The notes under the pieces were generated by a model that was given only the letters and a program-made list of their open reading frames with translations, had not been told where the DNA came from and did not search any database. Below, piece after piece: positions 19,734-25,839 of a stretch of DNA of 64,000 nt (positions are counted from its first letter, which is position 1; each line of letters starts with the position of its first letter). A program made the position numbers and the translations under genes. This DNA comes from an uncultured Solirubrobacteraceae bacterium (lineage in GTDB: Bacteria > Actinomycetota > Thermoleophilia > Solirubrobacterales > Solirubrobacteraceae). Location: positions 236,561 to 300,560 of the forward strand of contig CAVWJU010000003.1 in assembly GCA_963755275.1 (NCBI GenBank). Reading direction: 5' to 3'.

Positions 19734-22700
19734 TCATTCGACGAGGTCGAACCCGCCGGCCAGGACGAGGTCGAGACGCCCGGTGCGCCACCCGCGCACC
19801 GCGTCGCGGACGAGCGGGGTCGGGCGCTCGCGGTAGCGGCGGACGATCGTCGGGCGCTCAACCTCGCCCGGCGTGACGGTGACGCGGACGCGGCGGCGGT
19901 CGTAGCCGCCGCGGCCGTCGGGGATCTCGAGCACGTGCAGGCCGGACTCCGGGCGCAGCGTGCGCAGCGCGGCGAAGCCGGTGACGGACGCCGACCAGCG
20001 GTAGCGGCGGCCGGCCTGCTCGGCGACGTCCTCCAGGCGCATCCCGCGCTCGCGGGCCCAGGCGCGGTACATGGCCACGATCCGCGGCGCCGAACTCCGG
20101 GTCGCCGTCGACGCGCAGGCCGGCGTCGGCGGGCTCGCCCGCCTCGAGCGCGTCGAGCGCCTCGCCGAGCAGCAGCACGCGCTGGGCGGCGCGGCGCACG
20201 AGCTCGGAGGGCTGGCGGCGGGCGGAGCGGATCCGGCCCATCAGCGAGCTCGCGCTGCGCAGGCCGGCCTCCATGCGGTCGCGCAGCTCGATGCCCGCCG
20301 AGCACCGCGAAGCGGCCCTCGTCCTCCCAGAAGCCCGGGCTCGCCCAGGCGCGCCAGCAGCGACGGCCTTCTCCGCTTGCCAACCCTCATCGGAAATCGC
20401 GCGCCGCGACCTCGGCGAACGCCTCCTCGAGCAGCGCGAGCGAGCCGTTGCCCTCGCGCGCGAGCGTCCGCAGCGACACCGGCGCGGCGCTCGCCGGCAG
20501 GCTCGGGCGTCGGCGTCCGGGTCCACGAACGTGACCTTCAGGCCCGCTGCCGCCGGCGCGCACGAACAGGAACTGGTCGCCGCCCGGCACCGAGTGGCCG
20601 GCGATCGCCAGCGCCAGCGGCGTCAGGAAGTGCCGCTCGACCGCGCGCTTCAACGGCCGCGCGCCGAGGTCCGGCGTGAAGCCCTCGGCGAGCAGGAACT
20701 CGAGCGCGGAGTCGTCGAACTCGACCGCCCACTGGCGCCCGCGCAGCCCGCGCCGCGCCAGCACCGACTCGAGCTCGCCGAGCCAGGATCTCGCGCATCA
20801 TCGGCCGCGACAGCGGCCGGAAGACGACCGTGCGGTCGATCCGGTTGAGGAACTCGGGCCGGAACGCGCGCGCCACCGCCTGCTCGACGCTGCCCGCCGC
20901 GAACCCGGACGCGGGCGAGAACCCGATCCCGCCCGCGATCCGGGCGCCGAGGTTCGAGGTCATGATGATCACGGCGTGGCGGAAGTCGGCGGGCTCGCCG
21001 CGCGGGTCGCTCAGCCGGCCGTCGTCGAAGACCTGCAGGAACAGGTCCCAGACGCTCGGGTCGGCCTTCTCGAACTCGTCCAGCAGCACGACCGAGAACG
21101 GCTGGCGCCGGATCCGCGCCACCAGCGAGGCGTCGTCGGGCTCGCCGTCGCCGAGCATCCGCCGCGCCGAGCCCGGGTTCTGGTACTCGCTCATGTCGAT
21201 CCGGATCATGCGGTCGCCGGAGCCGAACAGGTGCTCGGCCAGCGCCTTGGCGATCTCGGTCTTGCCCGTGCCGGTCGGCCCGACGAACAGCAGCACGGCC
21301 TGCGGCCGCGTCGGATCGGTGAGCCCGGCCTTCAGCAGCGCGACGCGCTCGACCATGCACTCGACGGCCTCCGGCTGGCCGATCACGCGCGAGCCGAAGA
21401 AGACCCGCAGCGCGTCGACGTCGAGCCGCTCGCGCTCGTCGAGCAGCGAGGCCGGCAGGCCGGAGCGCTCGGTGATCGTGGCCAGCACGTCCTCCATCGT
21501 CAGCGCGTCGTCGCCCGGCCGGCGCCGCCGCATCGTCTCCAGCAGCGACAGCAGCGAGCCCGGCAGCGCGGCGTCGCCGAGGAAGTGGCGGCCGAGCGCG
21601 AGCGCCTCGCGCAGCACCTCGCGCGAGCGTCGCCGGCGCGAGCCGCGCGGCGAGCGCGAGCGTGCGCGGCTCGTCCATCGGCGCCACGCGCACGACGTCG
21701 AACGCGTCGCGCACCTGCCGGCCGCGCGCGCACGAGCCGCTCGTAGGCGCCCGGGTCGACGATCCCGACGACGTGGACGCGCGCGTCGGCCAGCCCGGCC
21801 AGCAGCAGGTCGAGCGCGCCGCGCGGGTTCTGGCGGTACGTGCCGGCGTAGAGCATCTGCTCGAGCGCCGGGACGATCCAGAGCGCCTCGCTGCCCGCCA
21901 GCGTGCGCGACGAGGTGGCGCATCCGGCCCTCGAGCTCGCCGACGTAGGTCATCCCCGCGTTGACCTCGGCCGCGCCGGCCTCGAACGTCATCCAGCCGT
22001 CGCGGGCGAGCTCGCCCGCGGCCGCGCGCAGCCGGCTCAGCCGCCCGCTGCCGCGCTCGCCGACGACGAGCAGCGGCTTGCCCGCGCGCACGGCGGCGAC
22101 CAGCGCGGCGATGTCGCGCTCCAACGCGTCGTCGGTCAGCGTCCGGCGCCGCGCTTCGGCCGCCTCGCGCGCGCGCCGCACGCGGCCGATCGCCCGCAGG
22201 TTCTCGGCGACGTCGCGGTTGGCGGCCATCCGCTCCAGCGCGCGCCAGCACGGAGGCCGGGATCGCGTCGCCCAGCGCGACGCGCGAGGGCGAGCGCGTC
22301 GTCGAGCTGGACGTCGGCGATGGCGTCCGACGTCGACCGGCTCGTCGCGCCGGCGCGCGACCGCCCGCAGGTCCTCGAGCGCCGCCTTCGTGCCAGCCGC
22401 CCGGCTCGGCCGCGGGCGAGCACCTGCGGTGATCAGCCCGTCGCTCGACGTGCCGGTCGAGCGCGCGCAGCAGGAACACCGTCGCGCTGGCCGCGGACCG
22501 ACGCCGATCAGCGTCGAGCAGCGCGCGCGCCAGCTCGTCCGAGTCGCGGCCGCCGCGCGAGCGCCTCGAGCGCGACCGCGCCGGCGATCGCGTCCTGCGC
22601 GCCGGCGAGCGCCAGCAGCGCCGCGTCGTCGAGCTCCGACGCCAGCTCGACGGCGCGCTCGAAGCGCTCGTTCTCGCGCAGCGCCGCCGCCCGCCGCTCG

Positions 22701-22751
22701 CTTCCGGGGGAGCGCCCGCAGGGCTTCGAGCGCCTCCTCGAGCTCGGTCAC
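19734..22751 (-). CDS. ClpA/C-like double-AAA+ ATPase fused to a C-terminal release factor 2-like (PCRF) module lacking GGQ, frameshifted
   Basis: D1: GERGSGR, AGMTYVGELEGRM. D2: VGPTGTGKTE, RIDMSEY, VLLDEFEKA, FRPEFLNRID, GARPLKR. C-terminus: PGFWEDEGR, AMYRAWARERG, LRPESGLH, VRRY..PLVRDAVRGWRTGRLDLVLAGGFD. Confidence 0.8.
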
Positions 22752-24065
22752 CGCAACCCGGCCAGCTCCTCGTAGAGCGCCCGCGCGGCGCGCTCGCCCT
22801 GCTCGAGCGCGACCAGCCGGTAGGACTCGTTCGGGGCGTGCAGCGCGTCGTCGGGGAGCGAGAAGCCGGAGACGATCGCCGGGATGCCGCGCTCGGCGAA
22901 CGCGGCCAGGATCGGCAGCGTGCCGCCGGTGCCGCACCAGCGACGGCGCGCGGCCGGTGGCGCGCTCCAGCGCGCGCCGCGCGGCCTGCAGCGCGGGCGT
23001 CTCGGGGTCGAAGGCCGACGGCTCGGCGCGGTCGGCGCTGAAGATCAGCTCGGCGCCGTCGGGCAGCGCGTCGCGCAGCAGCGCCTCGAGGTTGCGGGCG
23101 ATCTCGTCCGAGCGCTGGCCGCCGACGATCCGCACCGACAGGTCGGCGCGAGGCCACCGGCACGACGATCGTGCGCGCCTGGCCGCCCTCGACGCGGTGG
23201 ACGTCCAGCGACGGCTCGGCCGTCGTGCGCACGTAGAACTCGGTCGCGGCCGCGGGGTCGGACGGGCCGCGCGCCGACCTGCGCGAGCTCGGACTCGCCG
23301 CTCGGGCAGCGTCGCCCAGCCCGCGATCTCGAGCTCGGACGGCGGCTCGACGCCGGCGCGCAGCGGCTCGGGCAGGCGCCCGTCGGGCCCGGGCAGGACC
23401 GCGGCCAGCGCGCGGTGCAGCGCGTGGAAGGCGTTCAGCGCGGCGCCGCCGTACATGCCGGAGTGCGCGGGCTGCGTGCCCGTGCGGACCTCGACGTGCG
23501 CGAACACCATCCCGCGCGTGGCGAGCGTCAGCGCGGGCGTCTCGGCGTCGATCATGCCGCTGTCGAAGACGATCACCGCGTCCGCGCCGCGCGCGTCCTG
23601 GCAGCACCCACTCGCCGACGTCGTCGGAGCCCGTCTCCTCGGCGCCCTCGATCAGCACGCGCACGTGCACCGGCAGCTCGCCCGCCGCGGCCAGCGCGCA
23701 GGCGACGTGCAGCAGCGGGAGGAAGTTGCCCTTGTCGTCGGTCGCGCCGCGGGCGTAGAGCGCGGCCGTCGCGGACCGTGGGCTCGAACGGCGGCGACGT
23801 CCAGTCCGCCGAGGTCGCCCGGGTCCTGCACGTCGTAGTGGCCGTAGATCATCACCACGCGGCGCGTCGTCACGGGCCGAGCGCAGCTCGCCGACGACCA
23901 GCGGCGCGCCGCCGGGCGTGTCCACGAGCTCGCACGTCCCGCCGGCGGCCCGCACGCGCACGGCCGCCCACTCGGCGGCGTGCGCGCAGCGCGGCCTCGT
24001 CGCGCTCGCCGGCCGAGATCGACGGGATCCGCAGCCAGTCGATCGCCTCGTCGAAGCAGGCTCAG
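22748..24065 (-). CDS. M20/M25/M40 metallopeptidase (dipeptidase-like), frameshifted; start approximate
   Basis: DWLRIPSIS, YGHYDVQ, YARGATDDKG, EGAEETGS, HSGMYGG, HAPNE. Confidence 0.85.
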
Positions 24066-25839
24066 CTCAGCCGCTTGATCACCGCCAGCGTGTCGCCGGC
24101 GGTGACGGCGTCGCCTTCGGAGATCGGCAGCTCGGCGATCTTGCCCGCCTTGTGGGCGGTGATCTCGTTCTCCATCTTCATCGCCTCGATGATGCAGACG
24201 AGCGCGCCCTCTTCGACGGTCGGCGCCCTTCTCGACGAGCACCTTGAAGACGTTGCCCTGCATCGGCGAGGCGAGCGTCGTCGCCGCCGCCGGCTCCGCC
24301 GCCGCCGGCCTTGCGGTCGCGCTTGGGCGCGGCCTTCGGCGGGCGCGACGCCGTTCGGACGACGGCGCGCCGGCCTCGCCGTGCACGGTGACGCTGAAGC
24401 GCTTGCCGGAGACCTCGACGACGTAGTCGCGGGCGACGATCTCGGACTCGTCCTCGTCGGCCGGCTGCGGCCTTCGGGAACGCAAGCGCCTTCAGCCACT
24501 CGCTTGTCCTCGATCAGGTCGCGGCAGGTCTCGCCCTTGGCCCACTGCTCGGAGGCCATGATCGCCTTGTGGAACGGGATCAGGGTCTTGACGCCCTCGA
24601 TCTCGAACTCCTTCAGCGCGCGCGCCATCCGCCGCGTCGCGCGTCTCGCGGTCGGCGTCCCAGACGATCAGCTTGGCCACCATCGGGTCATACAGCGGCG
24701 TGATCTCCGAGCCCGCCGAGCACGCCCGAGTCCACCCGCACGCCCGGGCCCCGACGGCTCGCGGTAGTGCGCGACCGTGCCCGGCGCGGGGGCGAAGTTC
24801 TTCGACGCGTCCTCGGCGTTGATCCGGCACTCGATCGCGTGCCCGTGCCAGCGGATGTCGTCCTGGCCGAAGGCAGATCGGCTCGCCCGCGGCGATCAGG
24901 ACCTGCTCGCGCACGATGTCGACGCCGGTGACCGCCTCGGTCACGCAGTGCTCGACCTGCACGCGCGTGTTCATCTCCAGGAAGAAGTACTCGCCGTCCT
25001 CGCTCAGCAGGCCCTCGATCGTGCCCGCGCCGCGGTAGTCGACGGCGCGCGCGGCGTCGACGGCGATCTTGCCGATCCGCTCGCGCAGCTCGGCGTCGAC
25101 CAGCGGCGCCGGCGACTCCTCGATCAGCTTCTGATGGCGGCGCTGGATCGAGCAGTCGCGCTCGCCCAGGTGCACGACGTTGCCGTGCGCCGTCGGCCAG
25201 CACCTGGACCTCGACGTGGCGCGGGTCGGGCAGGTAGCGCTCCAGGTAGACCGTCGCGTCGGAGAAGAACTTCTCGCCCTCGCGCGCCGCGCCCTCGAAG
25301 GCGTCCTTGAGCTTGTCCGGCTCCAGCGCGACGCGGAAGCCCTTGCCGCCGCCGCCGCCCGCGGCCTTGACCGCGACCGGGTAGCCGATCTCCTCGGCGA
25401 TCCGCTCGGCGTCCTCGAGCGACTCCACCGGCTCGGTCGTGCCCGGCACGATCGGCACGCCCGCGTCCTGCATCAGCTCGCGCGCCTTGGTCTTCGAGCC
25501 CATCGCGTCGATCGCCGACGCCGGCGGCCCGATGAACGTCACGCCGGCCTCCTCCAGCCGCCGCGCGAAGGCGGCGTTCTCGGCCAGGAAGCCGTAGCCG
25601 GGGTGCACGGCCTCGGCGCCGGAGCGCTCGATCACCTCGAGCAGCTTGTCGACGTTGAGGTAGGACTCGGCGGCCGGGCCCGGACCGAGCAGATAGGCCT
25701 CGGTGGCGCGCTTGACATGCTGCGCGTCACGGTCGGCCTCGGAGTACACGGCGACCGACTCGATCCCGAGCTCGTCGAGCGCTCGAATGACACGGACCGC
25801 GATCTCGCCGCGGTTGGCGACCAGGACCCTTGTAAACAT
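24062..25839 (-). CDS. Acyl-CoA carboxylase alpha subunit (biotin carboxylase plus biotin carrier; AccA3/BccA-type), frameshifted
   Basis: [42 protein letters not shown], biotinylation motif EAMKM. Confidence 0.92.

Follow-up and report, generated by a model that had tools for sequence, protein, structure and literature searches.

A Clp-type AAA+ ATPase joined to a release factor 2 body that lacks the GGQ domain in an uncultured Solirubrobacteraceae bacterium

The window analysed here is a stretch of 64,000 nucleotides from an uncultured Solirubrobacteraceae bacterium (contig CAVWJU010000003.1, positions 236,561 to 300,560), and its minus strand carries a gene (19734-22751, opening with GTG at 22751 and closing with its last codon at 19737-19739 and the stop at 19734-19736) that encodes a two-tier AAA+ ATPase of the Clp/Hsp100 class covalently joined to the body of release factor 2 (RF2). 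The product comprises 997 residues once 23 frame breaks are bypassed in a frameshift-aware protein-to-DNA alignment to the intact homologue P0007; all features of the gene described below lie on the same strand. An initial annotation, made from the nucleotide sequence alone, had proposed a Clp-type unfoldase fused to an RF2 mimic without the GGQ domain, and its limits for the gene were exact. The peptide blocks on which it relied (PGFWEDEGRFAVL, RDRMEAGLRSASSL, ADAGLRV...AMYRAWARERGM, TGFAALRTLRPESGLH, IVRRY...RGWRTGRLDLVLAGGFD, GEVERPT and EIPDGRG) were all recovered from the minus strand, spread over three frames in the six-frame translation, and the E. coli RF2 strings given as their counterparts paired block for block in a HMMER alignment to RF2 from the Protein Data Bank (PDB).

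The C-terminal ~240 residues form an RF2-derived module consisting of domain 1 and the domain 2/4 superdomain. The first part is a helical bundle resembling RF2 domain 1 (20146-20476), which was delimited by profile alignment to RF2 residues 11-201, by helices at residues 24-132 of the structural model and by VIA alignment to the E. coli RF2 structure 1gqe, where the match starts at RF2 residue 7; the RF2-type PGFW motif (20318-20338) lies within this bundle. The second part, the domain 2/4 superdomain (19737-20145), was assigned by VIA alignment to ribosome-bound RF1 and RF2, by the conservation profile and by comparison with the RF2 of the same genome. It includes the AMYRAWA segment of helix α5 (20055-20075), the sequence GLHVLEIPDGRGG replacing the SPF loop (19905-19943), the bridge TPGEVERPT at the former site of domain 3 with its GGQ (19848-19874), and the most conserved stretch, IVRRYRERP...RGWRTGRLD (19770-19847). 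A conserved junction, V.FVDPDA (FVDPDA at 20512-20529), and after it an acidic linker rich in Pro and Ala lie ahead of the module (together 20477-20545; tail alignment A1); this segment was modelled with low confidence (predicted local distance difference test score, pLDDT, of about 70 for model residues 1-20) and has a net charge of about -4.

The likeness of the tail to RF2 is not due to chance, because the tail profile (A1) matched solved RF2 with E = 3.8e-17 over RF2 residues 11-201 (HMMER against PDB; 5.8e-10 against RF1), all of the top 50 Foldseek matches of the tail model (50/50) were RF1 or RF2, and VIA alignment of the model with 1gqe gave Z = 18.5 over 235 residues. The tail is thus a descendant of RF2. 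The model used was the AlphaFold2 prediction of the closest intact tail (P0001:74-340; 97% identity to the window over the query region), and its mean pLDDT was 94.4. The best structural match, 1gqe, is the closed crystal form of RF2. When the domain 2/4 part (model residues 133-267) was aligned with ribosome-bound RF1 and RF2, Z was 14.5-17.7 with a root-mean-square deviation (rmsd) of 2.5-3.0 Å over 126-134 residues. The chain ranges aligned by VIA (e.g. 104-343) leap across domain 3, from RF residue about 210 to about 320.

Pfam searches agreed with the expectation of the initial annotation that PCRF, and not the RF-1/GGQ domain, would be found. PCRF (PF03462, cut-off 24 bits), which spans domain 1 and the first half of the decoding superdomain, was detected at 27.2-33.1 bits in P0060, P0081, P0087 and P0088, four of the five distant members tested, with the fifth (P0069) just under at 23.5 bits, while the window's own C-terminal fragment scored a sub-threshold 15.3 bits. 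The RF-1/GGQ domain (PF00472) gave no match in the window pieces or in eight homologues. One ESM Atlas cluster matches the tail model at template modelling (TM) scores of 0.66/0.74; its proteins (54 members, 235 aa) carry PCRF alone and could be stand-alone RF-like proteins without GGQ, or fragments of the fusion.

The same genome has an ordinary RF1 (PET, GGQ) and an ordinary RF2 (SPF, GGQ) on another contig, and comparison with the latter defined what the tail has lost. In the tail, GEVERPT (~7 residues) stands in for about 125 residues of the genome's RF2, which begin just after the strand of the recognition loop, run as far as the switch loop and contain GGQ. This replacement and that of the SPF motif had been read from the DNA at the outset; the SPF loop is also shortened. 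The SPF-loop region reads SPFDSANRRQTS in the genome's RF2 versus IPDGRGGYDRRR in the tail, and the elements that read the stop codon, LSPFDSANRRQTSF and AGAGGTDAQ in RF2, correspond to EIPDGRGGYDRRRV (~3 residues shorter) and GD-PEFGP. The SPF tripeptide, the R(H/Q)TS that follows it, the GG(T/D)E of the helix α5 tip and the switch loop are all absent. A MAFFT placement of the strand after the loop against the GGQ domain of RF2 was rejected in favour of the structural alignment. Because domain 3 with its GGQ, the SPF motif and the α5 tip motif have been lost, the tail can neither read stop codons nor hydrolyse peptidyl-tRNA.

What has been kept is highly conserved: the RF2-type PGFW, which is invariant in the tail alignment, MYR.WA..RGM, PE.GLHVLE, and IVRRYRE.P.PLVRD.VRGWRTGRLD.VL.G.FDL, with column identities of 0.81-0.90 in the IVRRYRE.P.PLVRD.VRGWRTGR stretch marking the best conserved part of the tail. 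Codon comparisons with two intact orthologues gave ratios of nonsynonymous to synonymous substitution (dN/dS) of 0.21-0.31 in the second AAA+ domain (D2), 0.29-0.43 in the RF-like tail and 0.60-0.70 in the N-terminal domain taken together with the first AAA+ domain (D1), and the tail is under purifying selection according to its ratio. The module is far less acidic than its parent, domain 1 having a net charge of about -1 compared with -18 in the genome's own RF2.

In the ATPase body, the N-terminal ~200 residues (22134-22751) form a helical, HEAT-like repeat domain without a membrane helix, as judged from structure-atlas matches, alignment and hydropathy. ESM Atlas structures of HEAT-repeat clusters match this domain at a TM score of about 0.5 and a weak HEAT_2 match was seen in P0081, while an Atlas feature search with the N-terminal domain gave no usable match and Pfam scans of the window pieces and homologues showed no Clp_N domain. 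A further Atlas cluster, of 814-aa AAA/AAA_2 proteins mostly from Pseudomonadota, also has a HEAT-like N-terminal domain (TM 0.69 to residues 1-182 of P0029, the intact orthologue from Solirubrobacter soli), and may represent tail-less relatives of the ATPase body.

D1 (21414-22133, defined by alignments) is catalytically degenerate. The Walker A position is occupied by GERGSGRL (22038-22061) and the Walker B position by LWIVP (21869-21883), which stands where ClpB has ILFIDE, and Walker B is absent from all aligned members (24/24); the pore-loop tyrosine is kept (GMTYVGE, 21936-21956). On these grounds D1 is non-hydrolysing. The large domain of D2 (20781-21413; Pfam AAA_2, PF07724, E = 8.7e-39, translation P0121) is spanned by a window frame that runs uninterrupted from 21626 to 20781, and includes Walker A (GPTGTGKT, 21258-21281), Walker B (LLDEFE, 21069-21086), the Arg-finger motif FRPEFLNRID and the hGF loop GGIGFSP (20913-20933). 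It is followed by a ClpB_D2-small domain (20546-20780; PF10431, E = 5.7e-13) with the sensor-2 motif GARPLKR (20645-20665). The best solved match to the D2 profile was B. subtilis ClpC (E = 1.4e-82), and D2 is, by its motifs, active and ClpC-like. Alignment to ClpB left ClpB residues 396-531 without a counterpart, so a ClpB-type M-domain is absent. Alignments to ClpB and ClpC also placed an acidic loop (GDGEPDD, 21132-21152) where GYVG would be expected, and a variable acidic loop occupies this site in every member examined. We know of no characterised Hsp100 that has both an hGF loop of the ClpP type and an acidic loop instead of GYVG. The assignment to the Clp-type AAA+ proteins with intact D2 motifs was thus borne out, but the label 'unfoldase' seems doubtful as it stood, because D1 lacks the acidic residues of Walker B (and in this clade also the P-loop Lys) and GYVG is deleted from D2 throughout the family.

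The suggestion that the ring brings a protease with it found some support in the hGF loop. This Gly-rich loop follows TSNLG; its G and F are invariant in 33 sequences (alignment A2), and hGF was present in 127 of 137 near-full-length members. In profile alignments, the LGF of the family falls on the VGF of ClpC and on the ClpA IGL of a ClpB/ClpA chimera, and the loop of the genome's own ClpX is GVGF. At least four clpP loci were found in the genome, with intact copies on contigs C5 and C11, the latter in a tig-clpP-clpX operon. When the unbroken D2 segment of the window was co-folded with three copies of the ClpP from that operon, the score was 0.44 compared with 0.05 for the best control, the runs agreed in at least 64% of contacts and the pLDDT of the partners was at least 72. 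This result was graded as weak support and may reflect memory of solved Clp-ClpP complexes; in the calibration, 7 of 80 solved complexes, as well as both mismatches that passed, scored 0.60 or under. Coupling to ClpP through the hGF loop is therefore best described as plausible on the modelling, with the balance for and against it about level.

Intact homologues were 980-1290 aa in length, always with the RF2-like module at the C-terminus, and the reconstructed frame of the gene meets no in-frame stop, in keeping with the single open reading frame (ORF) first proposed. The 23 skips needed to align the gene to P0007 comprised 22 of one base and one of two bases; every break was an extra base or bases and no base was lost, and 12 of the 23 fell in the N-terminal domain. 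The high G+C content (~75% up to roughly 29 kb) makes mechanical ORF lists uninformative, and a frame plot of G+C at the third codon position showed the coding frame switching every few hundred bases. Two genes upstream on the same strand share the defect: an M20 peptidase gene (22751-24067) needed nine one-base skips and a biotin carboxylase gene (24074-25839) ten (nine of one base and one of two) when aligned to their Solirubrobacter soli orthologues. Their products are 84% and 91% identical, respectively, to the S. soli proteins and their order is as in S. soli, which places the source organism close to the genus Solirubrobacter. In a related metagenomic contig (L020, 94.4% identical in DNA comparison), 22 of the 23 extra bases are missing, and its copy of the gene contains five others.

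Because the neighbouring genes carry the same defect at the same density and L020 is free of 22 of the 23 extra bases, the frame breaks are assembly errors and not decay. The opposite view, that the window copy is a decayed pseudogene whose fusion has no function in this organism, could appeal to the presence of 23 frame breaks within 3 kb and to the one break shared with L020. It was rejected as highly improbable on the pattern of extra bases without losses or in-frame stops, the equally broken housekeeping genes alongside, the different set of errors in L020 and the dN/dS of the tail; in addition, the source assembly (29 contigs) has an estimated completeness of 71%, and clpP genes are split in it too. 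The break common to the window and L020 lies near 20780 (~3980 in L020), with local sequences that differ, and could be a coincidence of two error-prone assemblies, not improbable given their error densities, or a systematic error tied to the sequence context. Of the genome's four clpP loci, two (contigs C12 and C25) are split by frame breaks or stops, which fits indel errors throughout the genome. No public sequencing run was found to contain the stretch, the best word share being 0.12, in soil metagenomes. G+C drops sharply near 29-31 kb, from ~72-78% (window positions 1-29000) to ~62-67% (30000-64000); the high-G+C part is full of single extra bases and the lower-G+C part has long unbroken ORFs of up to 667 aa. 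This break in composition could reflect a chimeric contig, an acquired island or uneven polishing.

The fusion is widespread across several phyla. A search with the last 118 residues returned 422 proteins, of which the full-length ones (950-1175 aa) carry AAA_2, ClpB_D2-small and often PCRF, and a profile of 48 tails searched against 1.84 billion representatives retrieved 425 clusters (50% identity) at E <= 1e-30; in every long match (860-1290 aa) the module lies at the extreme C-terminus. Named sources include Solirubrobacter, Planctomycetota, Thermoanaerobaculia, Longimicrobiales, Hyphomicrobiales and Eisenbacteria. A hydrophobic N-terminal helix followed by a run of arginines was present in 92 of 137 near-full-length members, which suggests that the protein is anchored in the inner membrane and lies mostly in the cytoplasm. 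In the Solirubrobacter-like clade the protein begins directly with the HEAT-like domain and lacks the membrane helix, has Arg in place of Lys in the D1 P-loop, possesses the shortest bridge at the site of domain 3 (7 residues versus about 25-35) and has no insert at the α5 tip; by these features it appears to be a soluble, pared-down form. A single copy was found in the source genome. A sample of 151 genomes from its class gave three matches, by which prevalence is only weakly estimated, since no more than 15 first-look candidates were scored per genome. NCBIfam has no model for the family, all matches to its Clp and Prf models being far below their cut-offs, and the PADLOC defence models gave no full-length match, with partial matches to the AAA core only (DolB and PDC-M37B, about 150 residues) and none to the tail. 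No partner gene was conserved across the seven loci compared (S. soli, two contigs of related soil metagenome-assembled genomes and four other lineages), and local synteny with the M20 peptidase and biotin carboxylase genes is limited to the Solirubrobacter-like clade.

RF2 domains 2/4 occupy the decoding centre of the ribosome, and, as the example of ArfA demonstrates, no codon is needed for RF2 to be positioned there. With this in mind, the tail may be a targeting or sensing arm, carried on the flexible acidic linker, that would dock on a ribosome whose A site is vacant, in the position taken by RF2 (30S decoding site and L11 stalk region). Docking would bring the ATP-driven ring, which probably pairs with ClpP through its hGF loops, to ribosome-bound substrates, among which the nascent chain, a bound factor or ribosomal proteins are candidates. 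In most phyla the machine would be hung from the inner membrane by its single N-terminal helix, and in the clade of the window it would be soluble. We favour this reading, in which the tail directs the protein to the A site and the L11 stalk region and the ring works on material bound to the ribosome, possibly together with ClpP; we hold it tentatively and with somewhat less than even confidence.

Several observations weigh against it. The codon-contacting elements of RF2 and the switch loop are all gone, so that affinity for the A site is not to be assumed. Classical threading into ClpP is likewise questionable, because the GYVG pore loop is deleted from D2 (HMMER gaps of five residues versus ClpB and three versus ClpC) and D1 is without the Walker B acidic residues, and the ClpP co-fold was a weak pass. 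The genes next to the fusion differ in every phylum examined, and genomic context gives no link to the ribosome. Finally, plant PrfB3, an RF2 relative without SPF and GGQ, has an RNA-binding job away from the A site, on the 3' untranslated region of petB (PMC5897788).

PrfB3 is also the precedent for an alternative by which the tail binds free RNA (mRNA ends, or rRNA precursors or fragments) instead of the A site and the ATPase remodels or clears RNA-protein complexes. The Arg-rich character of the most conserved tail stretch, the much reduced acidity of the module and the loss of all codon-reading elements are each compatible with such a role, whereas domain 1, which has no known role off the ribosome, has nonetheless been kept with its invariant PGFW, the rmsd of the domain 2/4 fold from ribosome-bound factors is 2.5-2.9 Å, and no genes of RNA metabolism lie nearby at the loci examined. 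We consider such binding of free RNA unlikely, but worth weighing.

The tail might instead be a protein-protein module, either a decoy or receptor for partners of RF2 (RF3, PrmC, ArfA-like adaptors or toxins that target release factors) or a regulatory or assembly domain of the hexamer. The overall shape of RF2 is kept and best matched by the closed form, Hsp100 proteins often have accessory domains for docking adaptors, and the absence of ribosome evidence from the genomic context would suit this explanation. PrmC, however, acts on the GGQ domain, which is missing here, the most conserved surface is the Arg-rich hairpin of domain 4 and not domain 1, where RF3 acts, and no partner gene is conserved alongside; a protein-binding role would be a minority explanation, about as unlikely as the binding of free RNA.

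A more specific form of the A-site reading is that the arm and the D2 channel together make a device for ribosome dismantling or quality control, in which the ring would pull on basic ribosomal proteins or a stalled complex and hand them to ClpP. The suggestion that basic proteins or a stalled complex would be pulled comes from the channel, predicted to be lined by acidic loops and not by the tyrosines of GYVG. We regard this version as improbable, and a little more so than either alternative role of the tail just described.

Notwithstanding these uncertainties of function, evolution has kept the ribosome-shaped body of RF2 under purifying selection, dropped its codon reading and peptide cutting, and joined it to a Clp-type ATPase. 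Should the arm still dock on ribosomes, the protein would define a new class of machines that associate with ribosomes and a bacterial counterpart of Cdc48-Vms1; should it not, the body of a translation factor would have been reused as a targeting or regulatory domain. Both outcomes are testable in Solirubrobacter soli, a cultured carrier. The ring is of interest to the AAA+ field in its own right, with a dead D1 that keeps its pore tyrosine and a live D2 that lacks GYVG and has a ClpP-type loop. Bacterial ribosome rescue and quality control use tmRNA-SmpB, ArfA/ArfB, RqcH and PrfH, and to our knowledge no AAA+ motor is physically attached to an A-site factor in any of them. The literature search, which included a survey of release-factor evolution, found no published description of a Clp-type ATPase-RF2 fusion, in line with the earlier impression that no protein of this architecture has been characterised.

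Among known systems, the tail is closest to RF2 (PrfB; PCRF PF03462 with RF-1 PF00472), with which domains 1 and 2/4 are homologous in both sequence and fold and which shares the RF2-type P.FW, MY.RWA..RG, E.G.H and the C-terminal VL.G.(F/L)D. It differs from RF2 in lacking domain 3 with GGQ, SPF, the GG(T/D)E of the α5 tip and the switch loop, in being far less acidic, and in being fused behind an AAA+ body of roughly 735 aa in a genome that keeps separate, normal RF1 and RF2. The body in turn resembles ClpC and ClpA in its two stacked AAA+ modules, in a D2 with AAA_2, D2-small, intact Walker A and B, sensor-2 and Arg finger, in an hGF loop that aligns on ClpC VGF and ClpA IGL, and in having no long ClpB-type M-domain. 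Unlike these proteins, it has a HEAT-like N-terminal domain and not Clp_N, a D1 without the Walker B acidic residues (and, in this clade, without the P-loop Lys), a D2 from which GYVG is deleted and the C-terminal RF2-like module, and most of its relatives have an N-terminal membrane helix.

Plant PrfB3 resembles the tail in descending from RF2, in the loss of both termination functions and in its recruitment to another job (PMC5897788). PrfB3 differs in acting alone in the chloroplast, where it stabilises petB mRNA, and in having no ATPase fused to it. In PrfH (RF-H) and in ArfA-RF2 rescue, too, a protein with the release-factor fold enters the A site and no stop codon is read; PrfH was among the structural matches of the tail model (VIA Z about 9-10). 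Both of them, however, keep a working GGQ and release the peptide, and PrfH lacks domain 1, whereas the tail has domain 1 but no GGQ. The survey of release-factor evolution mentions AAA+ proteins solely in the context of Cdc48-Vms1 (Burroughs and Aravind 2019, PMC6514570). In that system of eukaryotic ribosome quality control a release-factor-fold protein is likewise paired with a two-ring AAA+ machine, and as functional speculation the analogy may be drawn. The fold of Vms1, however, is the unrelated one of eRF1, and Vms1 has catalytic activity and associates with Cdc48 non-covalently, whereas here a non-catalytic bacterial RF2 fold is fused covalently to its ATPase.

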